Below are positions 25,913 to 57,179 of a DNA stretch of 64,000 nt, in pieces. The position numbers and the translations under genes were made by a program. Below the pieces are notes generated by a model, which was given only the letters and a program-made list of their open reading frames with translations, was not told where the DNA came from and searched no databases. The DNA is from Ilumatobacteraceae bacterium (GTDB taxonomy: Bacteria > Actinomycetota > Acidimicrobiia > Acidimicrobiales > Ilumatobacteraceae): the NCBI GenBank assembly GCA_044361815.1, contig JBIKID010000001.1, positions 38,103 to 102,102 on the forward strand, read 5' to 3'. Numbering within the stretch: position 1 is the first letter of the stretch; each line of letters starts with the position of its first letter.

Positions 25913-26683
25913 ATGAAAGTCGTTTTACTTGCCGGCGGACTAGGTACCCGTATGAGAGAGGAAACTGAGTACAAGCCAAAGCCAATGGTAGAGGTAGGTG
26001 GCAAACCGGTCTTGTGGCACTTAATGAAGATATTTGCAGTTCATGGATTGAATGATTTTATTGTGTGTACTGGGTACAGGGGTGATGTCATTAAAGACTA
26101 TTTCCTCAATTATGAGGCTCGGATGAATGATTTCACCGCACATCTTGGGAAATCAAGCCATATCGAAGTACACGGTCAGCATGGAGAAACTGACTGGAAG
26201 GTGACTGTTTCCGACACTGGTGCTACGACTATGACGGGTGGCCGTGTGAAGCGTGTTGGTAAATACACAGAGGGACGATTTATTGTCACTTATGGTGACG
26301 GGCTTGCCGATGTTGACATGAAAGCACTGTTAGCTTTCCACGAGTCACACGGGAAATTAGCCACGGTGACTACTGTTCGACCATTGTCTAGATTTGGTGT
26401 GATGGACCTAGATCAGAAGGGTCAGGTTCAGCAATTTCGCGAGAAACCACAAACCGATGATTTTGTTAATGCTGGTTTTTTTGTGTTTGAATCCGGAGTG
26501 CTGAATTACCTCGACGAAGAGTGCGTGTTAGAACAGGCTCCGCTTGAACAACTTGCAGCAGAAGGTCAACTCATGGCTTACAGGCATGAAGGATTTTGGC
26601 AGCCAATGGATACCTACCGAGAGTTCACAATGCTTAACGAGATGTGGGAAAGCGGAAATGCGCCCTGGAAAGTGTGGAAATAG
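25913..26683 (+). CDS. rfbF: Glucose-1-phosphate cytidylyltransferase
   Basis: MKVVLLAGGLGTRMREET nucleotidyltransferase loop. 256 aa. Overall RfbF/DdhA-like sequence. Followed by the CDP-glucose 4,6-dehydratase gene. Confidence 0.9.
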   Translation: MKVVLLAGGLGTRMREETEYKPKPMVEVGGKPVLWHLMKIFAVHGLNDFIVCTGYRGDVIKDYFLNYEARMNDFTAHLGKSSHIEVHGQHGETDWKVTVSDTGATTMTGGRVKRVGKYTEGRFIVTYGDGLADVDMKALLAFHESHGKLATVTTVRPLSRFGVMDLDQKGQVQQFREKPQTDDFVNAGFFVFESGVLNYLDEECVLEQAPLEQLAAEGQLMAYRHEGFWQPMDTYREFTMLNEMWESGNAPWKVWK

Positions 26684-27681
26684 TGGCGTTACAGGACTCA
26701 GTTGAATATTGGAGCAATAAGAGAGTTCTTGTTACTGGCGCGTCTGGCATGGTCGGTTCCTGGCTCACTAGGTGGTTGGCGGAAAGCGGCGCTTACACGG
26801 TTGCCTTTATTGCCGATACCGATCCACAAAGTGAATTGATAAGAAGTGGAACCATTAACAGGATTAATGTGGCAAACGGTCGTCTTGAAAAATATGATGA
26901 CATTGAACGCGCAATTAATAATCATGAAGTTGACTCTGTTTTTCATTTGGGTGCACAGCCGATAGTCGGTGTCGCAGATCGCGCGCCACGGCATACGTTC
27001 GAATCAAATATTCAAGGCACTTGGAATTTGCTCGATGCATGTCGAACATTATCCCCGCTTGTAAAACGAATCGTTGTTGCTTCAAGCGACAAGGCTTATG
27101 GCACTCAGTTAAATCTCCCGTATACGGAAGATATGTCGATGAATGGAGATCACCCTTATGAGGTTTCCAAAAGTTGCACTGACCTAATCGCTACTACGTA
27201 TGCCCGTACTTATGGCACGCCAGTAACCATTGCGCGTTGCGGCAATATTTACGGTGGTGGAGACCTGAATTGGAATCGCATAGTCCCCGGAACGTTCCGT
27301 TCTTTGCTTCGTGGGGAACAGCCGGTTTTACGAAGCGATGGCACTTTCGTTCGTGACTATTTGCACGTAGACGACATCGTTTCTGCTTACTTGGCTCTAG
27401 GTGAAAAGACCGATAACCCAGCCTTTGCAGGTCAAGGTTTCAATTTCAGCGATGAATCCCCGCTAACAGTTATGGAGATTTATAAGGCGATTTGTGAAGC
27501 TGCTGGCGAAGCTGATAGTGAACCAAAAATTTTGAATGCTGCATCAAGTGAAATTAAAGATCAATATTTGGACTCAACCAAGGCTCACAAAGCTCTGAGC
27601 TGGCAGGCATCAGTATCGCTAAAAGATGGTTTGCAAAAATCATTTGATTGGTATCGCGAATTACTCACAGGTAAGAAATAG
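26683..27681 (+). CDS. rfbG: CDP-glucose 4,6-dehydratase
   Basis: Extended SDR: VLVTGASGMVGSWL, SSDKAYG, YEVSK. The GTG at 26683 overlaps the rfbF stop. The track start 26644 lies inside rfbF. Confidence 0.88.
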   Translation: MALQDSVEYWSNKRVLVTGASGMVGSWLTRWLAESGAYTVAFIADTDPQSELIRSGTINRINVANGRLEKYDDIERAINNHEVDSVFHLGAQPIVGVADRAPRHTFESNIQGTWNLLDACRTLSPLVKRIVVASSDKAYGTQLNLPYTEDMSMNGDHPYEVSKSCTDLIATTYARTYGTPVTIARCGNIYGGGDLNWNRIVPGTFRSLLRGEQPVLRSDGTFVRDYLHVDDIVSAYLALGEKTDNPAFAGQGFNFSDESPLTVMEIYKAICEAAGEADSEPKILNAASSEIKDQYLDSTKAHKALSWQASVSLKDGLQKSFDWYRELLTGKK

Positions 27682-27685
27682 TCCC

Positions 27686-28022: not shown

Positions 28023-29288
28023 GTGGTCGAGATGAGTGAAACTAAAACCAACTCAGCAATAAGTATCTTCATAGCGGCTTTTACTGGTGCATCAGTATTA
28101 TCCATTGCTGTCGCCTGGATTTACACTTCATATTTTCGAAATGATTTTGCGGCTTTGTTGGTCTTCTACGGAGAAGATGGCAACTGTGACGCAGTGACAC
28201 AAGGTTTCGGAGTGCATTGCTTTGGAGACTATTCGGCTATCCACTATTCAAACTTATTTCAGATGCCACAAGGTGCTGAGACTGTGTACCCATTAATTAC
28301 TAGAATTTTTCGGTTGCCCTTTTTGTTAATTGAATCAATCAGTAGCTACAGAGTTGGGCTTGTATGTTATTTATTAGCCCTTTTGGTTGCAATATTGTTT
28401 CCTGTTATACATTCGCACTTCACAGGTAGATCAAAACTCAAATTACCATTGTGGCTGTGCATTACCTGCCTCAATATCGGCACAATGAGTAGCTTAGATA
28501 GGGGAAATGTGATTGCGTTTGCGGTTCCATTTCTATACATGTTCTTGATTAAATTTCAAGCCGGTAGTTTGAAAAGTGCATCAACATATCTCACACTCGC
28601 AACCATGGTAAAACCACAACTTGCACTGTTTGCAATTGTATTTCTTTGGCGACGAGAAATAAAAACAATTGTTCAATTCTCGGTCACGTCAGTACTTGTG
28701 GTAATTGCACCCTATTTAGTTTTTGGAACTAGGAGCGTGACGGTATTGAGGGGTTGGATTAACTCAACAATTGAGTGGTCAAAATCACTTTCCCCTACGG
28801 CCGACTTTCCTACAAACTATTCGTTTAATAGAATCTTGGGAACAGTAGATTTAAACTACACAAAATTTAGTTTTATACTTGGATTTGCATTAGTAGTAAG
28901 TATTTCCATACCGATTGTAACTAAAAAGAAGAAGATTCAAGTAGTTGATTTAATTCAACTGGGTTTGGTACTAACTTGTATGAACTCAATTGTCTACGTT
29001 TACTATTCCGTTTTGCTGATACCGCTTTGGGTAATTCTTTTTTCTGAAGCACCAAATAATCCACCCGACGAAGAGGCAATCAATAAAGGTAATCAATTTG
29101 CGCCACTTCTGCTTGCTCTGGCTACGGCACCACTAGCTTGGCCATCACGATGGAGGATAGGCGATGATGTAAGCGCAGGAGGTGCATACAACATCATTCC
29201 AGTTCTCATAAGTATAAGTGTGGTTTTATTTGTTGCTTACACAATGGCATGTAACGTTCTTCCCCGTGCAAAGTACGAAGCTGAATAG
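28023..29288 (+). CDS. Polytopic membrane protein, GT-C / DUF2029 (GT87)-like glycosyltransferase (tentative)
   Basis: 421 aa with many hydrophobic segments. DRGNVIAFAVPFLYMF...MVKPQLALFAIVFLWRRE resembles PimE/DUF2029-type enzymes. AT-rich. Confidence 0.55.
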   Translation: MVEMSETKTNSAISIFIAAFTGASVLSIAVAWIYTSYFRNDFAALLVFYGEDGNCDAVTQGFGVHCFGDYSAIHYSNLFQMPQGAETVYPLITRIFRLPFLLIESISSYRVGLVCYLLALLVAILFPVIHSHFTGRSKLKLPLWLCITCLNIGTMSSLDRGNVIAFAVPFLYMFLIKFQAGSLKSASTYLTLATMVKPQLALFAIVFLWRREIKTIVQFSVTSVLVVIAPYLVFGTRSVTVLRGWINSTIEWSKSLSPTADFPTNYSFNRILGTVDLNYTKFSFILGFALVVSISIPIVTKKKKIQVVDLIQLGLVLTCMNSIVYVYYSVLLIPLWVILFSEAPNNPPDEEAINKGNQFAPLLLALATAPLAWPSRWRIGDDVSAGGAYNIIPVLISISVVLFVAYTMACNVLPRAKYEAE

Positions 29289-29300
29289 AGGGTATCGAAG

Positions 29301-32119: not shown

Positions 32120-33886
32120 CTAACCAAGGGTTAGCACCAGTATATTTTTGTTAGAAATTGACGAGATCAATCCGAGTGCTCGCAGGTTTGCGATGAGGTC
32201 AGCGCCTTTATCTTCGTATCCATTACGGTCAATCCAAATTGCTTCAAAACCGAGACTCCGAAGTTTTGCTACAAGGAGTTTTGGGTCGGTGGGCAGGGAA
32301 TTTTGCCATGCACCATCCCGCCCCTTGACACCCCCGTAACTCCATTGAAGAGTTGATGAGTGGAAAAAACCACGAAGATGTTTATAGTCAGTCATTTCGA
32401 CAACTGGTGGGTTCTCGGGAAATGGAACTATTGGAAGTTGGAAAATCATTGCATCGTTACCAAACTCAGTTTCGATTTTTTGAACCAAATAGCGGTCGTT
32501 TTGCCATGAGCGAGCCGTTTTTTCATACGAGGGAAGCGGATGACCAGGATTCATGTCCAAGAGAGCAACAGCACCAACGAGCATGAAGATCGTTATTGCA
32601 GTAATCTGCTTAAGCTTCGCAACCATTTGGTTAAGCAGAAGTACGGCACACACAATTGCAGGGAAAGCAATTACAACCGACATCCGAGACCAAACACGTA
32701 ATTGGGTGAATCCAAAAGCTGCAAAAATTTGAGCAAAGCCACCAACTGTGCTCACCAGTATTGCCATGAAGGCAAAGGATGACAATGCTGGCAACAGACT
32801 ATTCTTCTTTTGTGACAGGCGGAAGACCAAAACACACATAAGAACAAGAAGGCCAAATCCCCCGATTAATCCAATAGCTTCTGTCCCTTCACCAACCAAA
32901 TAAACCGGATTCGCTTTATTTCGAAGGTTCGCAAATTGAGGAATTCTGTGACCTCCAACTGGGAGTAATAGGTTTGAAATTTTTAGAGAGTAGTACTCCA
33001 CTTGTGCAATAGATCTTTGAACGATTGACAGATTGCTTCCATTTTGTTTTTGATACAACCAGATTGGGAAATACTGAACGGCCATAGTGGAAGTTGCTAA
33101 GCAAAGCGCCCACGCTATTGGGAGCCACTGAAATGGACCGGACTGTTTAATCCAGCGGAAAGCAAGAATAGGTGTTGCAAGTATGAGAAAAAAGAAGGCG
33201 TAGTACAAACCAGTCGAAGCGGCAGATATTGAGATGGCGGCTATCACCAAAGTTGAAGGCTGACGACACCACCTGATGAGAACAGACCGAGAATTAGAAT
33301 GGGGCAGGACAGCACAAATACTGTCTCCTGACAATTCCCTTATCAGAAATGCAGCCCAAAGGGGCACAGCCCAGTAAGCAGACAAATAAAGATGGCCAGG
33401 ACCGTGTTGAAAATGGTAAGGGAGAAAAGAAAATATGACACCTATAAGCACGGCTGCCGGTCGCTTAATTTTGAGCATTCGAGCACCGATGTAACCACCT
33501 GCTGTTGTGAAAAGGTACGTTCCAAAGAAGAAAAGGTTAAAAGTCAACACTTCACTTCGAAGTAATTTCACACCTACCCACAACATTGCTAAGTGCAGGT
33601 TGTCAGCCACTGCAGGAAAGTCGTGTAGGTCCTGCCCGAATGGAGCTCCTAATTGTTTAGTCGACCAGTACCATTGCCCAAATCTCATATTCCTCAAGCC
33701 ATTAAGTGTCAGAAGTCCATCACCCGAATAGAGAATGGGAACTCTTGGGTGAAGGTGCCAAAGCTGAAATAAGTAAACGAGGGCTGCAATAGTTATTGAA
33801 ATTGCAATTACTAAGGCCCAAAGTTCTGAACGCAAATTGAATCCAATGGCAGGCTGAGCATCATCAGTAATTTGAGTCGGCGACAT
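32120..33886 (-). CDS. Large polytopic membrane protein with a C-terminal soluble domain (GT-C-like by architecture only)
   Basis: 588 aa. About 12 hydrophobic segments, then a ~130-aa hydrophilic tail. No family recognised by eye. Confidence 0.5.
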   Translation of the reverse strand: MSPTQITDDAQPAIGFNLRSELWALVIAISITIAALVYLFQLWHLHPRVPILYSGDGLLTLNGLRNMRFGQWYWSTKQLGAPFGQDLHDFPAVADNLHLAMLWVGVKLLRSEVLTFNLFFFGTYLFTTAGGYIGARMLKIKRPAAVLIGVIFSFLPYHFQHGPGHLYLSAYWAVPLWAAFLIRELSGDSICAVLPHSNSRSVLIRWCRQPSTLVIAAISISAASTGLYYAFFFLILATPILAFRWIKQSGPFQWLPIAWALCLATSTMAVQYFPIWLYQKQNGSNLSIVQRSIAQVEYYSLKISNLLLPVGGHRIPQFANLRNKANPVYLVGEGTEAIGLIGGFGLLVLMCVLVFRLSQKKNSLLPALSSFAFMAILVSTVGGFAQIFAAFGFTQLRVWSRMSVVIAFPAIVCAVLLLNQMVAKLKQITAITIFMLVGAVALLDMNPGHPLPSYEKTARSWQNDRYLVQKIETEFGNDAMIFQLPIVPFPENPPVVEMTDYKHLRGFFHSSTLQWSYGGVKGRDGAWQNSLPTDPKLLVAKLRSLGFEAIWIDRNGYEDKGADLIANLRALGLISSISNKNILVLTLG

Positions 33887-33903
33887 TCCTACAATGTAGA
33901 TGA

Positions 33904-35664: not shown

Positions 35665-35970
35665 TGACTTCTTGCTTGCGTATCGGATAAACAGAGAGCG
35701 ATATTTGCAACACAACAAGGTCCTCCCAAAAGCGATGTACATGTAGGCCAACTAGAAAGAAGTCTGGGTTCCACAATTCTAAAGGTTGACCACGCGGCAT
35801 GAGCAAAAAGGGCGAGGATCCACTTGTATGTAGTTAAAGACCATTGAAGAATGCCATTTGAGTCTTTCCATAACTAAAAGTTAGCAACGAAGAACACGCA
35901 CAATTCGAATGCAGCGACGTAATTAGGCGAGCTGCGCGTTAAAGATCATCGATTGAACAAAATCTCAACG

Positions 35971-36765
35971 TCAACGGTTTAGGAAGGTCCTCGTCAGACA
36001 CTTAAATGCACGAAAGGGAAACAGGACCAGTCTTCCAACTCGCCAAGTTCGTGAATTTCTAATGCTCTGGAGTTCTCCCATCGCGTTCGCAAGACGGTTA
36101 CGCAGGACGAAAAGGTTATCCTCAGCTAATTTCATGGTCTCTGCTCTTGGTGCTAGGTACCGTAACTGTGCGGTGAGGATAAGATTTTCTTCCTCTAAAT
36201 CAAAAATATACTGAGCACGAATAGTTTTGTCTCGAATGTGGTCTGGAGTTTTGGTATTCCGTGAACGCACTGGTGTTAAGGCATCTTCGTTTAACTTGCC
36301 TACGGGGGGCGAAATCTCACGAATTAGAATTGAATCGTTGAGAAAATCTTGCCGGCGGATTGCGGTGATGAAGAATTGGTCCTGTGACTGTTTTGGATTA
36401 GAGTCAGTACGGGGTTTGGTAAACAAAATTATGTTTGCAAGAACAATATCAACTTCATTCTGAGTAAATTCTCTCTTCAGATCACCGCATGCGCTAGAGA
36501 AGAGCTCTATGCCCCTTGGCAAGAGGGCAAGAACTTCTGAACTACCTGCTGTTCGATGTCGGTCACCCTCATTACAGATAACCGATATACGGGGATTGTC
36601 GTGAGTGAACTGAATTTTTAAAGTTTCATCAGTTATATCCGGAAGTCTTACTTCAAGGCTCCATGAAAACTCATCTTGCTGACGTAAAGATGTAACTGTA
36701 CGCAACAATGCTGGATCTTCAAGCGAATCCGCCAAGATAATGAAAGTAATAAAAACATTTTCCAT
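35971..36765 (-). CDS. Degenerate GT2-like N-domain fused to a coiled coil with a TWR-x7-PFR tail (module C)
   Basis: N-terminus FITFIILADSLEDPALLRTVTSLRQQ resembles a GT2 start but has no clear DxD. C-terminus ...ELQSIRNSRTWRVGRLVLFPFRAF. Confidence 0.5.
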   Translation of the reverse strand: MENVFITFIILADSLEDPALLRTVTSLRQQDEFSWSLEVRLPDITDETLKIQFTHDNPRISVICNEGDRHRTAGSSEVLALLPRGIELFSSACGDLKREFTQNEVDIVLANIILFTKPRTDSNPKQSQDQFFITAIRRQDFLNDSILIREISPPVGKLNEDALTPVRSRNTKTPDHIRDKTIRAQYIFDLEEENLILTAQLRYLAPRAETMKLAEDNLFVLRNRLANAMGELQSIRNSRTWRVGRLVLFPFRAFKCLTRTFLNR

Positions 36766-36832
36766 GGATACCGAAGAGGATAGGCGCTTAATGTGCCACT
36801 GGTATGCCTATGCTTTTTTCGTGGCAGTTGGG

Positions 36833-46550: not shown

Positions 46551-48105
46551 TTCGTTTACGAATATTGAGTTTGCGGTCATCTGCATTTGAACAGTGCCCA
46601 TCTTCCACACTGAAACGCCACCCGTGTAGGTCGCACACAACAAACCCGTTTTCGATGCGCCCAAACTCGGACAAGTCTGCTTGACGATGCGGGCAAAGAC
46701 GCTGCATCACATAGCCGTCTATTTCGATTTCAGCAGAGAGTTGAGTGGTCGCACCCTCAGGGGCTGTTCGGCGTACTGCTTCTTGTTCTGCGCGCCGCAT
46801 TCGCTCAACTGACAAGCTCTTGAAAAAGTTGTATAAAAACTCGTTGTATGCGCCGTCGCGCCATGCCGTAAAACGACAAGAGAGAAACAGCGAATTAGAC
46901 CAGTCAACGGCTCGGTCTGCAACTGTCTTTTCTAGTAGCGGCCGGGCAATCTCAAACCGATAGCGATACTTCTGATTTGTAAACGGGACCACGAGCCCGT
47001 TTGCAAAATCAATATACATTTCTGCATCATCTGTTTTCAATAAACATCCGCCACCAATCGCGGTTCGGAGTGTTGGGGCCATTGCCATTAATGGTTGCCA
47101 CCAATCTTGTAACTGGTTGAGCAAGTTGGTTTGTTGTTGTGGCCAAGTGGCTTTATAGCCACGCAGCCACTCAGCCCAGTCAGCCTGGTATTCACGCAAA
47201 TACTCTTCTTTGTGCACAAAGGGTCGCCGCACAAGATCATCACTCATCGGGTGCGTGACCACAACCGAACTCGGTGATACTTCAATTGATGTACCTGGAA
47301 TGTTGAGTATGGCTCGATCATTTCCACTTGCTTGAAGCCGCTTAATGAACTGTGTTTGATCAGGGAAGATGGAGAGCTCATCACCCGTAATCATGTTTGC
47401 CGAGAAGAGGTCTTCATCCAAAAAGCATGGTGGCCCGGCTGAAGGCACAACAACTCGTGCATCTACCAACGACACATATTTCATTGAGCGAGCAAATTGG
47501 CTTTCGACCTTGGTGCGGGCTTGTTGCATGAGTGATTCATGGGGTTCGTCGTAGACCATTGGGTACCAAATTGCTCCGCTGTACTGCAACCAATGCATGT
47601 CGACTGGGCCATGCACAGTGAGTGCACCCAAGTCGCCTGTGCGGCAATCGTTTTGATTAACAAGACGTGACTCGCCATCACTGATCACGATTGCCGAATC
47701 GCCACCTGGGCCATCAGCAATTGCACTCTCAACATGGATAGCGATTGTTAAACCATCACCCAAATCGATTTCTTTGCCATTTTCGGTACGCACAAAATGT
47801 GTGAAACCCAATTTGCTGAAACGACGCTCGAGCTCGCGAGTTGCAAAGTCGGGGAGCAATACTTTTGTTGACTTATCTATGTGATTTGTCAGCCACGGTT
47901 CATCTAAATGGTCAGCGTGTTGATGCGAAATGTAGAGATAGTCGGGAGATTCGATCTTTGCCATTAACTCTGGCGATAACTGATCGTTGCGTGGGAATAC
48001 GAACCATGACCCGAGGAAAGCAGGCAAAAACCATGGGTCACAAACAATCGTTGCCTGGCGCGTTTGCACCAACATGCCGGCATGGCCAATGGAGGTTGCC
48101 CTCAT
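46543..48105 (-). CDS. Metallo-beta-lactamase-fold domain fused to a C-terminal Rieske [2Fe-2S] domain
   Basis: N-terminus IGHAGMLVQ...ISHQHADHLD (MBL H-x-H-x-D-H). C-terminus CPH-x(17)-CDLH (Rieske C-x-H ... C-x2-H). Confidence 0.75.
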   Translation of the reverse strand: MRATSIGHAGMLVQTRQATIVCDPWFLPAFLGSWFVFPRNDQLSPELMAKIESPDYLYISHQHADHLDEPWLTNHIDKSTKVLLPDFATRELERRFSKLGFTHFVRTENGKEIDLGDGLTIAIHVESAIADGPGGDSAIVISDGESRLVNQNDCRTGDLGALTVHGPVDMHWLQYSGAIWYPMVYDEPHESLMQQARTKVESQFARSMKYVSLVDARVVVPSAGPPCFLDEDLFSANMITGDELSIFPDQTQFIKRLQASGNDRAILNIPGTSIEVSPSSVVVTHPMSDDLVRRPFVHKEEYLREYQADWAEWLRGYKATWPQQQTNLLNQLQDWWQPLMAMAPTLRTAIGGGCLLKTDDAEMYIDFANGLVVPFTNQKYRYRFEIARPLLEKTVADRAVDWSNSLFLSCRFTAWRDGAYNEFLYNFFKSLSVERMRRAEQEAVRRTAPEGATTQLSAEIEIDGYVMQRLCPHRQADLSEFGRIENGFVVCDLHGWRFSVEDGHCSNADDRKLNIRKRTS

Positions 48106-48111: not shown

Positions 48112-48471
48112 TTAGGCCACTGGTTGATCGGTGAATTGCTGACCACCGCGTGCAACATGTTCTGTCCACTCGGATCCATCCCAGTAGCGCAACTCGAAGC
48201 GCTTGGATGGATCTGGGTACCAAGCTGCAGGGGCAGCAGAGGAAGTTGTAGCAACTTGAGTGGTCGATGGGAATGGTGCCGTCGTAGTTGTGTACGTCGA
48301 TGTAGTAGTTCCGGCTTCTGAATTTGGGCGGCGAAGGAATGCGCAGTATCTGCCGTCAAACGTTGGCACGATGTTGACAACTTCCCAGCCTTCGGCAGAC
48401 TTCTTTGTCAACTCGGCTGCGAGTGCCTCAGGGCTTGATTTATAAGGGTTAAAAGCGACATACTCATACAT
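48112..48471 (-). CDS. Small protein with a C-terminal DUF2510-like motif
   Basis: AAWYPDPSKRFELRYWDGSEWTEHV is the DUF2510 signature. A Thr-rich linker precedes it. Sits upstream of the MBL-Rieske gene on the same strand. Confidence 0.55.
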   Translation of the reverse strand: MYEYVAFNPYKSSPEALAAELTKKSAEGWEVVNIVPTFDGRYCAFLRRPNSEAGTTTSTYTTTTAPFPSTTQVATTSSAAPAAWYPDPSKRFELRYWDGSEWTEHVARGGQQFTDQPVA

Positions 48472-48499: not shown

Positions 48500-49843
48500 A
48501 TGCCTCAGCAGGGAAGTGACCAAAAAACAGCAGATCAACTGCGCCAGGAAATTGCCGCCCTTGTTGAGCAGTACCACCAAGTGGCATTTCCTGCAAAGCC
48601 ATTTTTGGGAGGAATTTCAACGCTTCCGGTCTCGGGCAAGGTATTTAATGCCGATGAGATGCAACACCTTGTTGACTCCTCACTCGATTTTTGGCTGACC
48701 ACGGGTCGCTACGCCGAGCAATTCGAAACGCAATTTGCCAAAGTCATGGGCATGAAACACGCATTGCTGTGCAATTCTGGCTCAAGCGCCAACTTGTTGG
48801 CAGTGACCGCACTCACTTCTCCTCGCCTCAAGAAGCGAGCGCTCAGAGAGGGCGACGAAGTCATCACTGTTGCTGCTGGTTTTCCAACAACAGTCAACCC
48901 AATCTTGCAAAACAGGCTGGTGCCCGTGTTTGTTGACGTTCAGCTTGGTACGTATGACGCCACAATGGAAAGCATTGAGGCTGCAATCGGCCCAAAGACC
49001 AAAGCAATCGTGATGGCTCACACGCTCGGAAACCCATTCAATCTCGACGGAGTAATGAGTATTGCCAAAGAACACAATCTCTTTGTTGTTGAAGACACGT
49101 GTGATGCAGTGGGCGCCACCTACAACAACAAACCAGTTGGCTCGTTTGGCGATATCTCTACCACCAGTTTTTATCCTGCCCATCACATCACGATGGGCGA
49201 AGGTGGGTGTGTGCTTGTCAAGTCGGCACCAATGAAAAAGATTGTGGAGTCATTTCGCGATTGGGGTCGTGACTGCTGGTGCCCTCCAGGCAACGACGAC
49301 ACCTGCGGCCGCAGATTCGATTGGCAACTCGGTGAATTGCCATATGGATATGACCATAAGTATGTGTATTCACATATTGGTTACAACCTCAAACTCACCG
49401 ACATGCAAGCAGCAGTCGGCGTTGCACAACTCAAAAAACTTCCCGACTTCATTGAGGCTCGTCGACACAACTTCAATCGTCTATATGCCGGACTCAAAAA
49501 ATTTGAAGAAGTACTTATTCTCCCCGAGACAACTCCAAAGTCAAACCCAAGTTGGTTTGGATTCGCTATCACCGTTCGCCCCGGAGCGCCATTTTCACGA
49601 CTCGAATTAGTTCAACACATCGAAAGCCGTCGCATCGGTACTCGCCTCCTATTCGGCGGCAACCTCATGCGCCAACCTGCCTATATAGGTATGCCCCATC
49701 GGGTCGTTGGCCCGCTCACTAATGCCAACATCATCACTGACAACACCTTTTGGCTTGGCGTCTACCCAGGCCTTAATGACGAAATGGTCGACTTCATGAT
49801 TGCGACTGTTGCCGAATTCGTCGAGACCAAAGTGGGAGCATGA
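48500..49843 (+). CDS. rfbH: CDP-4-keto-6-deoxy-D-glucose 3-dehydrase (E1; RfbH/DdhC)
   Basis: DegT/DnrJ/EryC1 fold. [13 protein letters not shown] (His where aminotransferases have the PLP lysine). Exact Fe-S motif C-x57-C-x1-C-x7-C counted by hand (DTC...[13 protein letters not shown]). Confidence 0.9.
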
Positions 49844-50793
49844 AGAAACTCATTTCGGTAATTGTTCCTGCCTACAACGAAGAGGCCTGTATTGAGGAAC
49901 TTGCGCGTCAATTGACTGCAGTGTTTGCTGTCAATGATCGCTACGACTTTGAAGTGTTGATTATTGAAAATGGTTCTGTCGATCGCACTTGGGAGATTTT
50001 GCAGACGATCAATGCGCGTGACTCGAGGTTTAAGGTCATTCGATTGGCCCGCAACTTCAGAATGGACGGTGGCATTACTGCCGGCCTTGACTATGCGACT
50101 GGTGCCGCAGTCGTATTTATGACAGCCGACTTGCAAGACCCACCCGAACTGATCACCGAGTTCATTAAGAAGTGGGAAGAGGGCTACGAAAACATTTACA
50201 TGCACGTGCTGAGACGCCGTGGCACAGGCCCAATTCGTTCATTCAACTCGAGCGCGTTCTATTGGCTTGCAGGCAAGCTCACCGACAATCGAATTCCAAA
50301 AAATGTTAGTGATTACCGATTACTTGACCGCAAGGTGTATGAAGCGGTCAGAAACATGAAAGAGCGCAATCGATTTGTGAGAGGGCTCGTTGCATGGGTT
50401 GGGTTTAAATCGATAGGCGTAGAAGCAGATCGTGCCGAACGTTTCGGTGGCGTGTCAAATGCCCACTCACTAAAAGTCATTGACCTTGCATTCAAAGGCA
50501 TTTTTTCTCACTCATATATTCCACTCAAATTGATCACGATGACAGGTGTAGTGCTCTCGCTGTCTTCTTTTGTCTCAATTGTTATTTTTGCCTTGGTATG
50601 GGTGTTCCGTGGTGTTCCATTCGCCGGCTTCGGCACACTTGTGTCAGTGGGGGTACTTGCGTTTGGCACGCTCACATTTATGTTGGGGATCATTGCGGAG
50701 TATTTAGGTCTCATTTACGAAGAGGTGAAGGGTCGACCAAATTTTGTTGTGAGTGACGTTCTCGGCGCAAACCTAGATCGTCAAGTTTCATGA
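49840..50793 (+). CDS. GT2 polyprenyl-phosphate glycosyltransferase (GtrB/ArnC/DPM1 architecture)
   Basis: [20 protein letters not shown], two C-terminal hydrophobic helices. ATGA overlap with rfbH. Confidence 0.85.
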
Positions 50794-51488
50794 CAAGCAA
50801 AACATGTCTTGTAATCGGTGGTGCCGGAGCTATCGGCTCAGCCGTCGTCAAGCAGTTTGCACAAAAAGAATTTCAAGTGTGGATGTCATCACGATCTACG
50901 GGTGAAAAAGCCAAGCAGCAACTACAACTGCTTGGTAAAAGCGATGCTGATCGTTTGAGTCTGCGAGACGCTCCTACTTTTGACGCTGTCGTGTGGGCAC
51001 AGGGAGCAAACCTGAGTGACACCATTGCTGATGTAGACGATGATGCATTTGCGGAGCTCATTCAAGCAAACGTCGGCTTTGTGGTTTCCACAATGTCTTC
51101 GTTGCTGGCTTCCAAAAAGATCGCAAAAGGTGCGCGGCTTTGCGTCGTTTCATCAATCTGGCAACAAGCAATACGGCCCAACAAACTTTCGTATTCCATC
51201 ACCAAATCGGCTTTGAGTGGATTGGTCCAGTCAGCAGCGCTCGATTTGGCTGACCAAAACATTTTGGTCAACGCAGTATTACCCGGGGTGCTCGATACCC
51301 CAATGACACGTAGCATGCTCTCAAGTGATCAGATTAATTCGGTTGCATCTCGCACTGGCTTTGCTCGTCTAGTAACACCCCAAGAGGTAGCCGTGCTCTG
51401 TCACTTTCTCTGTTCTGAAGCAAATACCGCACTTACGGGCCAATCACTTGTAGCCGACTTAGGGTTTAGCAATGTCCGACCTGTCTAG
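50790..51488 (+). CDS. Short-chain dehydrogenase/reductase
   Basis: LVIGGAGAIGSAV, SSIW, YSITK (Y-x3-K). 232 aa. ATGA overlap upstream. Confidence 0.8.
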   Translation: MTSKTCLVIGGAGAIGSAVVKQFAQKEFQVWMSSRSTGEKAKQQLQLLGKSDADRLSLRDAPTFDAVVWAQGANLSDTIADVDDDAFAELIQANVGFVVSTMSSLLASKKIAKGARLCVVSSIWQQAIRPNKLSYSITKSALSGLVQSAALDLADQNILVNAVLPGVLDTPMTRSMLSSDQINSVASRTGFARLVTPQEVAVLCHFLCSEANTALTGQSLVADLGFSNVRPV

Positions 51489-52548
51489 TCATTCAACGGT
51501 CACAATTTCTTCACAATCTCATTCATACGATGTGATTGTTGGTTCTGGAGTTGTGAAAGAACGACTTCACACAAACAATCATGTGATTGTTGCAGATAGT
51601 CGATTTCAGCCAATGCTCAAACACTTAGGTAAAACAGAATGTATTTATGTTGATGCAGTGGAGAGTGCAAAAAATCTATCCACAGTCGAAGAGATTATTG
51701 TGCAACTGCAAAAGAGTGGGGTTCGCAGAGACTCGACAGTGCTGGCGCTCGGTGGTGGAATTATCCAAGACGTGGTAACGCTGGCAGCCTCGCTATATAT
51801 GCGTGGGATCAAATGGAACTATGCACCAACAACACTGTTGGCCATGGCTGACTCGTGTATTGGTGGCAAAAGCTCAATCAACACCACAACAGTAAAAAAC
51901 CTCATTGGCAACATTTATCCACCCCAATCCGTGTTTGTTGATACCGATTTTGTCCTGACACTTCCCGAAGCAGATGTGCTCGGCGGACTAGCCGAAGCAG
52001 CCAAGATTTGTTTTTGTAAGGGTGTAACTGAGTTTGAAGGATTCTTGAAGTTTGGAAATACAAGTACACCAGTAAATCTTGACGCAATGTTGCCGTACGT
52101 TCTGGATATCAAGAAGTGGTTTATTCAAATAGATGAGTTTGATGTGGCAGAGCGCAAACAACTCAACTTTGGTCACACGTTTGGCCACGCACTCGAAGTT
52201 GGAAGCGATCACGGCATACCCCACGGGCTGGCGGTCGCAAGTGGCATGCGCGCAGCGCTGTTGTTTGAATCACAGACAAGAGTGTTGTCTGGTGTTGAAC
52301 AACAGTTATTTGAATACACCTCAATGTTGGTTCGAAGCCTCGCCGAGCGATGGACGATCAGTGCTATTGATTGGGACAAATATGCGGTTGCCTTCAGTGG
52401 GGATAAGAAGCATGGCGTCTCCGATTATTGTTTAATCTTGCCAAATTCAAGCGGCGGAGTTCGAGTGCAATACATTCCAAAATCTGAAACGATTCTGAAG
52501 AACATTATTGATGCGCAAAAATTGGCTTTGAGCGGAGAGATAAAGTGA
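51472..52548 (+). CDS. 3-dehydroquinate synthase-fold (sugar phosphate cyclase superfamily) protein
   Basis: GGGIIQDVVTLAASLYMRGIKWNYAPTTLLAMADSCIGGKSSIN and NFGHTFGHALE parallel the AroB motifs. 17-nt overlap upstream. Confidence 0.78.
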   Translation: MSDLSSHSTVTISSQSHSYDVIVGSGVVKERLHTNNHVIVADSRFQPMLKHLGKTECIYVDAVESAKNLSTVEEIIVQLQKSGVRRDSTVLALGGGIIQDVVTLAASLYMRGIKWNYAPTTLLAMADSCIGGKSSINTTTVKNLIGNIYPPQSVFVDTDFVLTLPEADVLGGLAEAAKICFCKGVTEFEGFLKFGNTSTPVNLDAMLPYVLDIKKWFIQIDEFDVAERKQLNFGHTFGHALEVGSDHGIPHGLAVASGMRAALLFESQTRVLSGVEQQLFEYTSMLVRSLAERWTISAIDWDKYAVAFSGDKKHGVSDYCLILPNSSGGVRVQYIPKSETILKNIIDAQKLALSGEIK

Positions 52549-54317
52549 CACATGCAGACCAAATGATTCAGTGGCTCCACGAGATGGGCTACACACACTG
52601 CTTTTTTGTCTCTGGTGGCAACAGTATGCATTTGCTCAATGCGGCTCGCCAGAAGATGACATGTGTCCCTGTTGTTCATGAGGTTTCTGCTGGAATTGCA
52701 GCCGAGTATTTCAATGAGTCACATCTTTCTGAAGGCAAAGCATTTGTTTTGGTTACTGCTGGTCCTGGATTAACAAATCTGGTTACAGCTCTTGCTGGCG
52801 CATACCTGGAAAGCCGAGAACTGTTGGTTTTTGGGGGTCAAGTAAAGAGCAGTGATCTTGCAACCAACGGTTTAAGACAGCGTGGCATACAGGAAATTGA
52901 CGGAGTTGCAATTTCCCGCCCAATTTCAAAGGCAGTATTTCGGGTTGAACAACCCATTTCGCAAAGGGTTTTTGCTGGCCTTGTACGACAGACGTCAGAA
53001 GGTAGAAAAGGCCCAGTAGTTATTGAGGTTTGCCTAGATGCACAGGGTGCACCTGTGCAAAGCGATCCAGGTTCGTCACACGACATCACGGATGACAGTC
53101 TCTCGTTGGCATTGCCCTCAATGGCTGAGGTCAATCAGGTTCGCTCTCTGCTTGCAAAAAGTTCAAAACCCATGTTGTTGTTGGGTGGCGGGATTAGCCG
53201 ACAAGACTGCGCGGCGTTACTCCCTCTCATCGAAAAATGGAAAATCCCAGTAACCACTACGTGGAACGCAGCGGATCGAATGGACTCTGGTCATGAGCTC
53301 TACTTTGGGCGCCCAAATACTTGGGGTCAACGGTCAAGTAATCTCATTATTCAGCAAGCTGATTTACTTGTTGCCGCCGGTACAAGGTTGGGATTACAAC
53401 AAACTGGTTTCAATTGGTCGGAGTTCGTTCCAAACGGTGAAGTAATACAAATTGATATTGATCAGGAAGAGCTCGAAAAAGGCCACCCAAAGCTTGCGCT
53501 GGCCGTTTGTGCAGATGCTGCTTCGACACTGCACTTGATTTTTGAAGATGCTTCCCAGATACCAAATTGGTCCACATGGAGAAGTCACGCTCGGCGAATC
53601 CGTCAAGAATTGCCTTTGAGCGAAGAGGTAAACGGTCATCATCAGGGATTCCTCAATCCATTTGATTTTGCATTGTCTCTATCGGAACTTTGCAAATCAA
53701 ATGACACTGTTGTTCCGTGTTCATCGGGTGGTGCATTCACCGTGATGATGCAAGCGTTTAACCAAAAAGGCGGACAGACCATCATCACCAACAAGGGTCT
53801 TGCGAGCATGGGGTACGGACTCGCAGGTGCTATCGGTGCAGCACTTGCGGATCGCCGTCGCAGATCGATTCTGGTTGAAGGCGATGGCGGTTTTTCACAA
53901 AACTTACAAGAGCTTGCAACGGTCGCAGTACAAAAACTCAACCTCAAAATGTTTATTTTTGCAAACAATGGATATGCCAGTATACGCATGACACAAAAAA
54001 ACTATTTTGATGGCGCATATTTAGGATGCGACATTGAATCAGGCCTGGGGTTTCCTGACTGGCAAGTACTTGCGAAAGCGTTTGGCATTAGCTCAATGAC
54101 TTTGAGTGAAGGGTTCCAATCAGATCCAGGATTTCTCGAGTCATGGAATAACAATGACCCATGTTTGTATGTTGTTCCGGTACATCCAGAACAAACATAT
54201 TTCCCAAAAATCGCAAGTCAAGTTACTGCTTCGGGGTCAATGGAATCTGCACCACTGCACAGGATGACACCCTTGTTGTCTGACGAAGTAGCGAAAGAAC
54301 TCGGCCTCAATATCTGA
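52545..54317 (+). CDS. Thiamine diphosphate-dependent enzyme of the acetolactate synthase family (YerE-like candidate)
   Basis: 590 aa. N-terminal Pyr domain (HEVSAGIAAEY...TAGPGLTNL). C-terminal ThDP motif GDGGFSQNLQEL...NNGYASI. GTGA overlap upstream. Confidence 0.85.
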   Translation: MTHADQMIQWLHEMGYTHCFFVSGGNSMHLLNAARQKMTCVPVVHEVSAGIAAEYFNESHLSEGKAFVLVTAGPGLTNLVTALAGAYLESRELLVFGGQVKSSDLATNGLRQRGIQEIDGVAISRPISKAVFRVEQPISQRVFAGLVRQTSEGRKGPVVIEVCLDAQGAPVQSDPGSSHDITDDSLSLALPSMAEVNQVRSLLAKSSKPMLLLGGGISRQDCAALLPLIEKWKIPVTTTWNAADRMDSGHELYFGRPNTWGQRSSNLIIQQADLLVAAGTRLGLQQTGFNWSEFVPNGEVIQIDIDQEELEKGHPKLALAVCADAASTLHLIFEDASQIPNWSTWRSHARRIRQELPLSEEVNGHHQGFLNPFDFALSLSELCKSNDTVVPCSSGGAFTVMMQAFNQKGGQTIITNKGLASMGYGLAGAIGAALADRRRRSILVEGDGGFSQNLQELATVAVQKLNLKMFIFANNGYASIRMTQKNYFDGAYLGCDIESGLGFPDWQVLAKAFGISSMTLSEGFQSDPGFLESWNNNDPCLYVVPVHPEQTYFPKIASQVTASGSMESAPLHRMTPLLSDEVAKELGLNI

Positions 54318-54334
54318 TTGGCTAGACTTTAGAT

Positions 54335-55138
54335 ATGAACAAGACCGAGCGCGAGATGGTAGAAATCCTCAAAAAAGGCCGCGACAGTTACGGGTATGTT
54401 TCGGTTAAAGCAGAGTTTGAAGCCGAAGGCACTCGCATTGAAGAGCTCATGCGCCTGATCGAGATGGCCCACAGGGCAAACCTAGAGCTGACCGTGAAGA
54501 TCGGGGGCTGCGAAGCAATTCGCGACTTGCTTGAAGCTAAGCAGATTGGTGTTCGTTATATCGTTGCTCCGATGGTTGAGTCTCCATACGCATTGAGTAA
54601 GTACGTTGCCGCGAAAAACCAGGTATATACAGCCGATGAGCAGCAAGACACCGACTTTTTGTTTAACGTCGAAACGATTACCGCATTTGGGCATCGCCAG
54701 GAGCTCGCCAACGTTGCCAAAGCCACGGGCGGCGTACAGGGCATGGTCTTCGGCCGGGTTGATTTCTCTGGTTCAATTGGACTAAATCGCGACACCATTA
54801 ATGATGACCAAGTGATGAATGATGTCGTTACAACTGCAGAAGTTTGCAAAGCAGCTGGACTTCAACTTGTTGTTGGTGGTGGGGTATCGAAAGACTCAGT
54901 TCAGTGTTTGCGTCGAGTGCAAAAAGTATTGCTGACGCGCTTTGAAACTCGCAAGGTTGTGTTTGCCGGTGAGGCAATTCAGAGTGACGATATTGAAAAT
55001 GGATTGCTTAATGCCGTGCACTTTGAGATGTTGTGGCTCATGAACAAGCGTGATTACTATGGCTCAATTGAACGCGAAGATGCAAAGCGCATCGACATGC
55101 TTGAAGCGCGCTGGAAAATTCTTAACAAGTCAAACTAA
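54335..55138 (+). CDS. HpcH/HpaI aldolase / citrate-lyase-beta-like TIM-barrel protein (tentative)
   Basis: [13 protein letters not shown] resembles the HpcH-family PMVES motif. 267 aa. Confidence 0.55.
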
Positions 55139-56193
55139 GTTGTTGCGTGCAGCATTGTGCGCTTGATCATCTCTTCAAGCGACGTCCATTCGGAAACCTG
55201 TAAGGCTTTTCTAGTACCTATATTCGCGGGTACGTACTGATGAATTGGTTCTGACGAGTCAATTGCTTTCGCAACAGTGATTTCTGGAAAGTAGTTTAAA
55301 ACTTCAGCAGAAACAGCAGCCACAGTTTGAGCTAATTCCAATATGGATACTGAGTGTTCAGAACCAATATGAAACGGCCCTACATCCTGATCATTTCCCT
55401 GAGCTAGAGCGCTCCAAAGCCAGGTTGCCATGTCGGACCCATACAAGTACGAACGGCGTGCTCGACCATCGCCCTGTATGGCGAGTGGCTGTCGGTCTAA
55501 AGCATTTTGTATAAAATTACCAATCGCAAAATGGGTGTCACGTGGCAGGTATTCACCGCCAAAAGCGAATAGTCGAGCAATAATGGGCGAGCATTGCCCA
55601 ATGTCTCCAGCCTCTCTGCACAATTGCTCTGCTATCTGTTTGCCTTGTGCATATGCGTTGAGTTGTCTCGCCGGTGGATTTGGCTGGACAATTCCTTCTG
55701 GAATGTGGCTCACAGTTTGAGGCTGAGTGCCATATACGGCGCCAGATGAGGTGAAGAGCAATGGTTGGTTATTGCCTGCGTACGTTAAAACAGATCTCAT
55801 TGCTTCTACGTTGATTCGCAACATCTTGGCTGGATTCTCGGCATTCAATTGAGCCGATGCTGGCGTTGCAGTATGAATAATCATGTCAACATGTCCAAGA
55901 TCAGGTGCGTTCGTCAAGAAATCATCCTCAACCCATGAAACATTTGGGCAACCAATTGCAATCGCATCCTGTACATGTTGAGCAGAAAGTCGTCTTGTCG
56001 GTATAACGAGCTCGATCTTGTTCTGAGAGTTCGCTTGGGCAATCTTGGCAGTCTGCAACATCCATTTTCCTACAAACCCGGTTCCGCCCGTAAGCAAAAT
56101 TCTCGAACCATTAATCCGCTCAAAGGCTGTCAACAGCCTCTCAAGATGCGGAGCAGAGAAAGGGAGATGGTGAGCAGCATCCATGAGATTCAA
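55135..56193 (-). CDS. NAD-dependent epimerase/dehydratase-family protein
   Basis: [26 protein letters not shown] (Y-x3-K). Convergent with the preceding gene, with a 4-nt stop overlap. Confidence 0.8.
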
Positions 56194-56240: not shown

Positions 56241-57179
56241 ATGGCATCACCAAAGCAACGCATCGGCTATTTGGGCCCAGAGGGCACCTTTACGCAGCAG
56301 GCTCTGCGAAGCCAAGCCGATCTTGCAGGTGCAGAACACATTCCATTTCGCACGGTTGTCGATGTACTCGATGCTGTTGAAGATGGGTCTATCTCACTTG
56401 GGTTTGTGCCAATCGAAAACTCTATTGAGGGCACGGTCAACTACACCCAAGATGCACTGGTGTTCGACCACGATTTACTTATCCAACGAGAAGTTGTGCT
56501 TGATATCGAGATGTGCTTGTTGGCTAAAAAAGGTGCAACCCTTCAGCAAGTAACCAAGATTTATTCGATGCCAGTTGCAACGGCACAGTGTCATGGGTAT
56601 ATCCGTGAGCATGCGCCACAAGCAGAAGTATTTGTGGCCAACTCCACAGCCGAAGCAGCGCGAACCGTTAGTGAGTCTGGTGACAACACTATGGTTGCTG
56701 TTGCACCACGCAACGCTGCGTCTATTTATGGACTTGAGGTAATTGCCGAAAACATTGCGGATCAATCTGGCAACCAAACACGTTTCGTTCTTGTGGCCAA
56801 AGAAGGTATTCCTGTTCCAACAGGTCATGATCGCACAGCGCTGGTTGTCTTTCAGCGCGCTGACGAGCCTGGCAGTTTGCTTTCAATCTTGCAAGAGTTT
56901 GCTGCTCGTCGTATCAACTTGTCGCAATTGCTGTCACGGCCAACACGTAGCGGTGGGTTGGGTGATTACTGCTTCATTATGTATGCAGACGGGCACATTA
57001 AAGATGAGTTAATGGCTGATGCATTGCGAGATCTCCATGCCAAACACGGAGACGTCAAATTTATGGGTTCGTATCCTGCTTTTGGGGAGCATGCACATAC
57101 GGCTCGAGAACATGCCGACACCAGATGGCGTGAAGCAGATGATTGGATCTCAGCGCTCAGAGCGCGTATTGCGCGCTAG
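56241..57179 (+). CDS. pheA: Prephenate dehydratase
   Basis: IGYLGPEGTFTQQA, NQTRFVLV, ACT domain with the LSRPT(R) motif. Confidence 0.92.
   Translation: MASPKQRIGYLGPEGTFTQQALRSQADLAGAEHIPFRTVVDVLDAVEDGSISLGFVPIENSIEGTVNYTQDALVFDHDLLIQREVVLDIEMCLLAKKGATLQQVTKIYSMPVATAQCHGYIREHAPQAEVFVANSTAEAARTVSESGDNTMVAVAPRNAASIYGLEVIAENIADQSGNQTRFVLVAKEGIPVPTGHDRTALVVFQRADEPGSLLSILQEFAARRINLSQLLSRPTRSGGLGDYCFIMYADGHIKDELMADALRDLHAKHGDVKFMGSYPAFGEHAHTAREHADTRWREADDWISALRARIAR

Follow-up and report, generated by a model that had tools for sequence, protein, structure and literature searches.

A probable caryophyllose-type sugar cassette with a dehydroquinate synthase-like paralog in an uncultured freshwater actinobacterium

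A unifying scheme for how acyl-branched sugars are made was proposed and partly demonstrated by Steitz et al. in 2022 (PMC9306805). According to this scheme, a pyruvate aldolase forms a gamma-hydroxy-2-keto acid, a YerE-like enzyme that depends on thiamine diphosphate (ThDP) decarboxylates this acid and adds the product to CDP-3,6-dideoxy-4-keto-glucose, and a reductase finishes the branch (PMC9306805). As a surrogate of this acceptor, dihydro-2H-pyran-3(4H)-one was used in that work. The scheme covers erwiniose (ErwE/F/I/J), gastriose (MygE/F/I) and a C6-branched sugar of R. palustris, and in the case of caryophyllose and the sugar of R. palustris, the substrate proposed for the aldolase is the unphosphorylated aldehyde 28 (PMC9306805). 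Here, we analyzed a stretch of 64,000 nucleotides from an Ilumatobacteraceae bacterium (contig JBIKID010000001.1, positions 38,103 to 102,102; called the window in the following), which harbors six tightly coupled genes and a convergent seventh gene. Judged from its gene content, this block is likely to be a caryophyllose-type cassette, which would form a CDP-linked 3,6-dideoxyhexose with a long, hydroxylated and terminally deoxygenated branch at C4 and pass it to the neighboring Wzm/Wzt envelope glycan. Most likely, the cassette is a new example of a gene set that is already tied to caryophyllose in Mycobacterium marinum, and this set includes a dehydroquinate synthase (DHQS)-like enzyme without a published role.

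In M. marinum, mutants in MMAR_2331, MMAR_2332 and MMAR_2333 lose caryophyllose (PMC9306805, PMC5706390), and deletion of MMAR_2331, a member of the aldolase family, abolishes caryophyllose addition (PMC5706390). The RefSeq annotation of this lipooligosaccharide (LOS) locus lists side by side MMAR_2327 (glycosyltransferase family GT87), MMAR_2329 (a protein of the 3-dehydroquinate synthase family), MMAR_2331 (of the aldolase/citrate-lyase family), MMAR_2332 (ThDP-binding protein), MMAR_2333 (glycosyltransferase family GT2), MMAR_2334 (RfbF, glucose-1-phosphate cytidylyltransferase), MMAR_2335 (RfbH) and MMAR_2336 (CDP-glucose 4,6-dehydratase) (PMC12395582 supplement). By annotation, every family of the string in the window already sits in a locus that is genetically tied to caryophyllose, the gene with the DHQS fold included. 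An earlier note on this DNA, made by a model from the sequence, knew of no described pathway with this gene set. This did not hold: the LOS locus of M. marinum carries annotations for the same families, and at the level of genetics and partial enzymology the gene string had already been assigned to a characterized pathway.

The map of open reading frames (ORFs) of the window showed six ORFs on the + strand between 48500 and 55138 and a convergent one on the - strand (55135-56193). Reading of the junctions revealed ATGA overlaps of start and stop codons at 49840 and at 50790, and an overlap of 17 nt (51472-51488) between the genes for a classical short-chain dehydrogenase/reductase (SDR) and the DHQS-like protein. 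At 52545 a GTGA overlap is present, with the longest ORF of the ThDP gene starting with GTG on the stop codon of the DHQS-like gene. A gap of 17 nt precedes the ATG of the aldolase gene at 54335, and the stop codons of the aldolase gene and of the convergent extended SDR gene overlap (55135-55138). The start of the ThDP gene is ambiguous (52545-52562; L082:2986-3001 in our numbering of loci). Public gene calls for an identical 86.6-kb metagenome contig place the start at an ATG that lies six codons later, which results in a protein of 584 aa and a gap of 14 nt instead of the GTGA overlap, and because of this later start codon an exact look-up of the 590-aa ThDP protein gave no match. Apart from this soft point, the coordinates and overlaps given in the earlier note were reproduced by the ORF map and the junction reading, and its family assignments hold in Pfam/NCBIfam profile searches and in the reading of hydrophobic helices. 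The closest relatives of the cassette proteins stem from uncultured freshwater Actinobacteria/Acidimicrobiia, including a metagenome-assembled genome labelled acIV.

The arrangement of these genes is far from chance, since the same families recur around the HpcH-like aldolase gene in dozens of genomes from several phyla. One genome per species was scanned with an alignment of the HpcH-like family as query, and relatives were found in 484 species genomes. The best 80 loci (60-88% identical) were compared by tblastn with the window proteins and by all-against-all clustering of their ORFs; 46 of them have at least 8 kb on both sides and are referred to as long-flank loci. The 80 loci span Actinomycetota (acIV, Nanopelagicaceae, Rhodoluna, Propionibacteriaceae and three named Mycobacterium species), Alpha- and Betaproteobacteria, Acidobacteriota, Eremiobacterota/Vulcanimicrobiota and Thermoleophilia. 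Four ORF families from the clustering (9, 13, 14 and 15) were antisense artefacts of high-GC DNA and were discarded. In the co-occurrence check that the earlier note had suggested, the DHQS-like, ThDP and HpcH-like genes recur together with CDP-sugar genes in the set of 46 long-flank loci (counts for the single families in Table 1). The gene order varies and is SDR-DHQS-ThDP-HpcH in some phyla and HpcH-SDR-DHQS-ThDP in others.

The loci of M. bohemicum (L059) and M. ahvazicum (L047) link the window to M. marinum. Both have the order dehydratase(-) E1(-) / RfbF-GT2-ThDP-aldolase-SDR-DHQS-like, which is collinear with MMAR_2336 down to 2329. Their proteins are 66% (HpcH), 63-64% (RfbF), 61-62% (GT2), 55-56% (E1), 51-52% (ThDP), 38-39% (DHQS-like) and 29-30% (SDR) identical to those of the window.

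The acceptor branch of the pathway is represented by three genes. RfbF would make CDP-glucose, and the 4,6-dehydratase-like enzyme together with E1 would convert it to CDP-3,6-dideoxy-4-keto-glucose, with the help of a reductase. A homolog of the dehydratase-like gene with 59% identity is contiguous with E1 in L052. The E1 protein reached 722.8 bits with the RfbH model NF011936 (cutoff 423), which covered residues 8-444 of 447. It has His228 where the cofactor Lys would stand and a C201-X57-C259-X-C261-X7-C269 motif, and both features were kept in 44 of 46 cassette homologs. We take the replacement of the cofactor-binding Lys of DegT aminotransferases by His and the C-X57-C-X-C-X7-C [2Fe-2S] motif to be the hallmarks of E1. 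On the basis of profile score and motifs the protein is a genuine E1, as had been stated before. Immediately upstream of E1, on the opposite strand, are genes for a DUF2510 protein (48112-48471, -) and for an Rv3818-like protein (46543-48105, -) with a metallo-beta-lactamase fold, an SCP2-like domain and a Rieske [2Fe-2S] domain; the Rv3818-like protein is not common to other loci, and it might conceivably feed electrons to E1 in place of E3.

The ThDP protein matched its best solved relative, 8RPH, end to end (residues 7-584) with 281.7 bits, compared to only 180.9 bits for the best acetolactate synthase in the PDB, and it was far under all acetolactate synthase equivalog cutoffs (e.g., 258 versus 738 bits). 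The structure 8RPH is that of JanthE, a characterized YerE-like lyase (PMC12188165). By these scores the protein is a YerE-type sugar-branching carboligase and not IlvB. Its earlier description as an enzyme of the acetolactate synthase family was right for the three-domain type, but the protein is closer to JanthE than to acetolactate synthases. The gene stands with genes for CDP-3,6-dideoxy-4-keto-glucose: E1 is part of the same string, RfbF and the dehydratase-like gene of the same locus. In six loci (L007, L013, L036, L063, L076, L077) the ThDP protein encoded beside the HpcH-like gene is 34-36% identical to that of the window, compared to 50-72% elsewhere, which points to a second subtype of ThDP enzyme combined with this aldolase family.

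The gene for prephenate dehydratase (pheA, 56241-57179) directly downstream of the cassette, and the name 'acetolactate synthase' given to the ThDP protein in source databases, may suggest a function in primary metabolism, with a housekeeping AroB beside pheA. We give this reading hardly any probability. In addition to the ThDP scores, the DHQS-like protein reached 224.3 bits with the aroB model TIGR01357, under the equivalog cutoff of 305. The DHQS-like family scored a median of 257 bits among its members versus 121 bits to E. coli AroB, and 2606 of 2652 ordered pairs (98%) scored the family over E. coli AroB; by these scores the family is a clade apart from the one AroB outgroup tested. Furthermore, pheA is common to only one other locus, whereas the cassette travels with CDP-sugar genes. 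Profile scores, locus context and clade test contradicted the primary-metabolism reading. Membership of the ThDP protein in the IlvB clade and of the DHQS-like protein in the AroB clade, which would have refuted the reading of the earlier note, was not seen in these comparisons. On the same three grounds we rejected a phosphonate pathway (phosphoenolpyruvate mutase/decarboxylase) and an EboD-type function of the DHQS-like gene.

The predicted aldolase is the tightest-linked partner of the ThDP gene across phyla. The AlphaFold2 model of the HpcH-like protein had a pLDDT of 85, and its top Foldseek matches were the HpcH/HpaI proteins 3QZ6, 2V5J and 4B5S (E ~1e-6, TM 0.50-0.54, identity 12-14%). 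An hhalign comparison with E. coli YfaU (probability 74%) paired FNVET with VQVES and a second motif with GPADLSASLG. By this alignment E113 and D143, which are invariant in the family, correspond to the metal-ligand motifs of YfaU; we take E153 and D179 to be the metal ligands of YfaU.

A pyruvate aldolase is not needed for a plain yersiniose-type branch, in which E1, the ThDP enzyme and a reductase would add two carbons from pyruvate and the DHQS-like and HpcH-like genes would be unrelated to the sugar. YerE uses pyruvate (PMC9306805), and JanthE accepts pyruvate among its donors (PMC12188165). However, the linkage of the HpcH-like and ThDP genes, the loss of caryophyllose in M. marinum lacking the HpcH-like homolog (PMC9306805, PMC5706390) and the rejection of pyruvate by ErwE, which stems from an aldolase-containing cluster (PMC9306805), make such a branch very improbable. 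The earlier note had considered a yersiniose-like sugar and had seen no role for an HpcH-like lyase in such a route. The branched sugar was well predicted, but the aldolase linkage and the effect of MMAR_2331 do not fit a plain two-carbon branch, and a role for the lyase does exist: pyruvate aldolases feed YerE-like enzymes with extended 2-keto-acid donors (PMC9306805), and the loss of MMAR_2331 abolishes caryophyllose addition (PMC5706390).

A further component of the cassette is the DHQS-like paralog. In 54 of 56 loci, the classical SDR gene was located directly upstream of it and in the same orientation (offset 532-794 nt). The best NCBIfam model for the DHQS-like protein was TIGR04425, an AroB-related putative sugar-phosphate phospholyase (269 bits, under the cutoff of 400), and its best PDB relatives were bona fide DHQS enzymes. 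Thirteen positions (R111, D127, K133, N143, E175, K178, K214, R228, N232, H235, H239, H251 and K312) were invariant in 52 homologs, and each of them aligned with an identical residue of E. coli AroB. We take these positions, mapped via the A. nidulans structure, to be the DHQS ligands for metal, NAD, phosphate and carboxylate, with K133, K214 and R228 presumably corresponding to the carboxylate binders Lys152, Lys250 and Arg264 (A. nidulans numbering). Invariants specific for the family were D42, Q99, C129, S134 and L211. Cys129 lies in the substrate-loop motif DSCIGGK, and E. coli AroB has Ser at this position. Position 219 is Glu in nearly all members and Gln in the window protein. No relevant mention of caryophyllose or YerE together with dehydroquinate synthase was found in the searchable literature, and the role of the DHQS-like gene in such loci seems to be undiscussed, at least in open-access text.

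Cassettes without the SDR/DHQS-like pair often carry a gene for a phosphatase of the haloacid dehalogenase (HAD) family beside the ThDP and aldolase genes. The pair was missing from seven of eight HAD cassettes (L007, L013, L026, L031, L062, L068 and L076; e.g., L026:9226-9909 and L068:9111-9797), with a Fisher p of 2e-4 for all loci and 6e-4 for the long-flank loci, not corrected for phylogeny. Only L037 (7370-9694) has both HAD and the DHQS-like pair, and its HAD part may form a fusion with the gene for the ThDP enzyme. In three Mycobacterium loci a gene for an FGGY carbohydrate kinase directly follows the DHQS-like gene (L059:12680-13957, L047:12658-13932, L069:2966-4240); no FGGY kinase was present in the window or in the other loci. 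The mycobacterial kinase may be the counterpart of a gene of M. marinum that lies between MMAR_2327 and MMAR_2329 and does not appear in the annotation list. Taken together, the fixed SDR/DHQS-like pair, the HAD swap and the FGGY kinase indicate that a phosphorylated compound feeds the donor branch.

We consider it possible, although with somewhat less than even confidence, that the DHQS-like paralog acts as a phosphate-eliminating deoxygenase and not as a cyclase, and that together with the SDR it turns an aldolase-derived 3-deoxy-ulosonate phosphate into a 3,7-dideoxy-2-keto acid. If this is true, cassettes with HAD in place of the pair would keep the terminal hydroxyl of the branch. A true cyclase, leading to a carbocyclic product (caryose-like or a cyclitol-bearing sugar) instead of an open-chain branch, would agree with the conservation of every catalytic and ligand residue of DHQS, and all characterized superfamily members in the PDB match list are cyclases. 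In Burkholderia caryophylli, caryophyllose is accompanied by carbocyclic sugars, for example caryose. We nevertheless regard a cyclase as improbable. M. marinum, the one organism with the gene set and a known product, makes the open-chain caryophyllose, and a dehydroquinate-like carbocycle is not a 2-keto acid and would leave the co-conserved ThDP decarboxylase/carboligase without a donor. The replacement of the pair by a HAD phosphatase also suits removal of a phosphate better than formation of a ring.

From these data we infer the role of the DHQS-like/SDR pair, the substrates, the step order, the carrier-lipid step and the exact product as follows. The HpcH-like class II aldolase would join pyruvate and an aldehyde to a 4-hydroxy-2-keto acid. 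The DHQS-like enzyme would perform a transient NAD+ oxidation, beta-elimination of phosphate and re-reduction, which would remove the terminal phosphate and leave a methyl ketone, and the adjacent classical SDR would reduce this ketone at C6. In the order that we tentatively favor, and that we hold to be somewhat less than an even chance, the aldolase acts first: pyruvate and erythrose-4-phosphate would give a 3-deoxy-heptulosonate 7-phosphate, an epimer of 3-deoxy-D-arabino-heptulosonate 7-phosphate (DAHP), which would be converted to 3,7-dideoxy-heptulosonate. The YerE-like ThDP enzyme would then decarboxylate the keto acid and add the acyl anion to C4 of the CDP-keto-sugar, and the convergent extended SDR would reduce the new branch carbonyl. 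Caryophyllose is 3,6-dideoxy-4-C-(D-altro-1,3,4,5-tetrahydroxyhexyl)-D-xylo-hexose; its side chain ends in CH3, that of gastriose in CH2OH. The six-carbon branch of caryophyllose without oxygen at C2' and C6' is what would be expected from decarboxylated 3,7-dideoxy-heptulosonate, as the pyruvate aldol would account for the 3-deoxy position and DHQS chemistry on the 7-phosphate for the 7-deoxy position. We read the D-altro descriptor as ribo-configured C4-C6 of the acid, which would make the acid the C4 epimer of DAHP and would explain the need for a dedicated aldolase instead of DAHP synthase.

Within the same pathway, the order of this one step may be reversed. The DHQS-like enzyme and the SDR would then act before the aldolase and turn a sugar phosphate like erythrose-4-phosphate into a 4-deoxy-tetrose, followed by the pyruvate aldol. 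This order sidesteps the cyclization of a 2,6-diulosonate, and a phosphorylated aldehyde precursor fits the HAD alternative and the mycobacterial FGGY kinase equally well. It also matches the unphosphorylated aldehyde 28 of the published scheme (PMC9306805), for which we found no explanation of its origin in the literature. The invariance of the residues to which we ascribe carboxylate binding (K133, K214, R228) in the 52 homologs would, however, be unexpected for a four-carbon substrate without a carboxylate, and the gene order is of no help, since it differs between phyla. We regard the reversed order as rather unlikely and retain the order with the aldolase first as the favored one.

The convergent extended SDR probably reduces the branch carbonyl on the CDP-sugar, as suggested by its position and the published scheme. 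It is common to the window and its acIV relatives. Most other cassettes carry a different extended SDR (family 5 of our clustering) directly after the aldolase, which is 25-27% identical to the convergent one. The convergent protein may be a functional counterpart of family 5 with different stereochemistry.

Several observations weigh against a caryophyllose-type cassette as outlined above. The HpcH-like protein is very divergent: phmmer found no match in the PDB at E <= 0.01, and its model reached a Foldseek TM of only ~0.5. The hhalign alignment spanned HpcH-like residues 69-152 only and did not include the catalytic Arg, which we take to be on the N-terminal strand (R70 in HpaI, R74 in YfaU); the invariant residues K25, R34 and K55 are candidates. 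No E3 reductase of the AscD type (ferredoxin-like and flavin reductase) was present among the scanned ORFs of the window, and no such family was conserved across the 80 loci. E3 may be encoded elsewhere, or a general reductase may act in its place. ORF family 5 was considered as E3 and rejected, since its members are extended SDRs. The DHQS intermediate has a tendency to cyclize, and for this reason an acyclic product would require either that the SDR intercepts the intermediate or that the active site is altered. The stereochemistry of the product may differ from that of caryophyllose, since the convergent reductase is unlike that of most cassettes. The aldehyde of the published scheme is unphosphorylated, unlike the precursor proposed here. 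No mutant of MMAR_2329 was reported, and its involvement in M. marinum is circumstantial. The equivalence to M. marinum is based on the gene names of a supplementary annotation list and on the genomes of three other mycobacteria. Finally, the 80 loci were picked by similarity of the HpcH-like protein and stem from related lineages, and the Fisher test consequently overstates the significance of the HAD swap.

Table 1. Predicted genes of the cassette and associated glycan genes in the window, with the number of the 46 long-flank loci that carry the family.
Feature	Position	Strand	Basis	Long-flank loci
RfbF, glucose-1-phosphate cytidylyltransferase, pathway entry to CDP-glucose	25913..26683	+	NCBIfam TIGR02623 equivalog 357.1 bits, cutoff 300.25	38/46
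RfbG-like, CDP-glucose 4,6-dehydratase-like extended SDR	26644..27681	+	best NCBIfam model CDP_4_6_dhtase, 189.7 bits, under cutoff 278	39/46
GT87-like multi-pass GT-C membrane glycosyltransferase	28023..29288	+	Pfam GT87 31.4 bits, cutoff 25; ~9-10 hydrophobic segments	
588-aa multi-pass membrane protein	32120..33886	-	no Pfam match; ~7 hydrophobic stretches	
E1, CDP-6-deoxy-L-threo-D-glycero-4-hexulose 3-dehydrase (RfbH/AscC/DdhC)	48500..49843	+	NF011936 RfbH equivalog	38/46
GtrB/ArnC/PgfS-type GT2, probable polyprenyl-phosphate sugar synthase	49840..50793	+	Pfam GT2; counterpart by annotation MMAR_2333	28/46
Classical SDR ketoreductase	50790..51488	+	adh_short_C2 107 bits	35/46
DHQS-like paralog (NAD+/metal sugar-phosphate phospholyase fold)	51472..52548	+	DHQ_synthase and DHQS_C domains	34/46
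YerE-like ThDP-dependent carboligase (sugar-branching)	52545..54317	+	three ThDP domains; GDGG...NN ThDP motif at residue 446	39/46
Class II pyruvate aldolase of a divergent HpcH/HpaI type, same family as MMAR_2331	54335..55138	+	Pfam PF03328 HpcH_HpaI 32.4 bits, cutoff 25	
Extended SDR (epimerase/dehydratase fold), probable YerF-like reductase of branch carbonyl	55135..56193	-	Pfam Epimerase 113 bits	

The ArnC-like GT2 would move the finished sugar to polyprenyl phosphate, from which a GT-C enzyme, e.g. the GT87-like protein, would take it over. The GT2 scored 219 bits with PgfS and 133 bits with ArnC, both under the equivalog cutoffs. It aligned with E. coli ArnC across residues 3-308, the membrane anchor included (27% identity, 318 aligned columns, E = 3e-39), and has two C-terminal hydrophobic segments (~229-267 and 258-292). 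The GtrB/ArnC architecture that had been noticed before was confirmed by this full-length alignment and the two C-terminal helices. A carrier-lipid step is supported by the GT87-like gene in the window, by MMAR_2327 in M. marinum and by GtrA-like genes, which accompany the GT2 in 15 loci; the window has no GtrA-like gene. The GT87-like protein is a candidate user of the polyprenyl-phosphate-linked sugar and may be linked to the branched sugar. The family of the 588-aa membrane protein adjoins six other cassettes (L015, L019, L038, L039, L040, L052). It is possibly a dedicated transferase or polymerase, and we assign it to the system only tentatively. Its divergent neighbor (33904-35664, +) is also a membrane protein; both have ~587 aa and no convincing Pfam match.

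A stretch of low GC content between 26 and 46 kb (39-46% compared to ~52%) coincides with the glycan locus, which harbors more GT2 and GT4 genes, methyltransferase genes and a Wzm/Wzt ABC exporter (37948-39989). Most genes of this locus have no counterpart in the 80 related loci. The region 26000-46000 resembles an island of surface-glycan genes that is variable or exchanged horizontally. A gene for a 2-oxoglutarate (2OG) oxygenase is located at 45202-45783. Past pheA and three tRNA genes, the segment 58162-63599 harbors another set of genes for glycan modification: one for a GT2, two for membrane acyltransferases (Acyl_transf_3), one for a 2OG-Fe(II) oxygenase and one for a fusion of GT2 and methyltransferase. 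The window opens at the chromosomal origin region (44-8059: dnaA C-terminus, dnaN, recF, gyrB, gyrA), followed at 16256-19896 by genes for a PASTA-domain kinase of the PknB type, for a PP2C phosphatase and for an FhaA-like protein.

Caryophyllose and other long-branched 3,6-dideoxyhexoses are antigens of the cell surface, shape the interaction of M. marinum with macrophages and are very hard to detect chemically. The caryophyllose-type cassette was now seen in acIV, an abundant uncultured freshwater lineage of actinobacteria. Long-branched sugars probably occur far more widely than the few solved structures would suggest, because relatives of the aldolase are present in at least 484 species genomes of Actinomycetota, Proteobacteria, Acidobacteriota, Eremiobacterota and Thermoleophilia. 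The published scheme leaves a gap in the origin of the terminally deoxygenated side-chain precursor, for which the DHQS-like/SDR pair, the HAD swap and the FGGY kinase offer a testable answer. If this answer is true, the origin of the caryophyllose side chain would be explained, and for hundreds of uncharacterized bacterial glycans the branch end would be predictable from the accessory module (DHQS-like enzyme and SDR, or HAD, plus an optional FGGY kinase). Such an answer would also add a non-cyclizing function to the dehydroquinate synthase superfamily and provide new enzymes for functionalized 2-keto-acid donors in ThDP biocatalysis.

Compared to AroB and the sugar-phosphate cyclases (DOIS, EEVS, DDGS), the DHQS-like protein has the same two Pfam domains and keeps the 13 ligand positions. 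It differs by its place in a nucleotide-sugar cassette, where it is paired with an SDR, and by its predicted outcome, elimination of phosphate without ring closure. With the ArnC/GtrB/DPM1 and GT-C systems the window shares the GT2 with two C-terminal membrane helices and a GT87-type gene, which is also present in M. marinum; in contrast to these systems, the GT2 stays under the PgfS and ArnC cutoffs, a GtrA-like gene is lacking, and such GT2s would have an unusual donor in a CDP-linked branched sugar.

Yersiniose A (YerE/YerF) is made from the same E1-derived acceptor, CDP-3,6-dideoxy-4-keto-glucose, by ThDP-dependent branching at C4 and reduction of the branch (PMC9306805). YerE uses pyruvate, at most 2-oxobutyrate, and works without an aldolase, whereas the window cassette adds the aldolase, the SDR and the DHQS-like enzyme, presumably for a longer donor. 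The aldolase, YerE-like and reductase functions of the scheme of Steitz et al. are all encoded in the window by our assignments. The main text of that work assigns no function to a DHQS-like enzyme or its partner SDR, nor to a phosphatase or kinase, and the aldolase of erwiniose is of the BphI type with an acetaldehyde dehydrogenase and not HpcH-like (PMC9306805). A phosphorylated precursor, as suggested by our comparative data, is also absent from the scheme.

The closest system is MMAR_2327-2336 of M. marinum. The host of the window is an uncultured freshwater actinobacterium (acIV, Acidimicrobiia type), and the cassette is part of a Wzm/Wzt ABC-transporter polysaccharide locus, not of a trehalose lipooligosaccharide locus. 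A distance of 21 kb separates RfbF and the dehydratase-like gene from the other genes of the cassette. Unlike the mycobacterial loci, the window lacks the FGGY kinase, and its terminal extended SDR is convergent and of another type. Despite these differences, the M. marinum locus comprises the same gene families by annotation, and the congeneric loci L047 and L059 are homologous to every gene of the window cassette.

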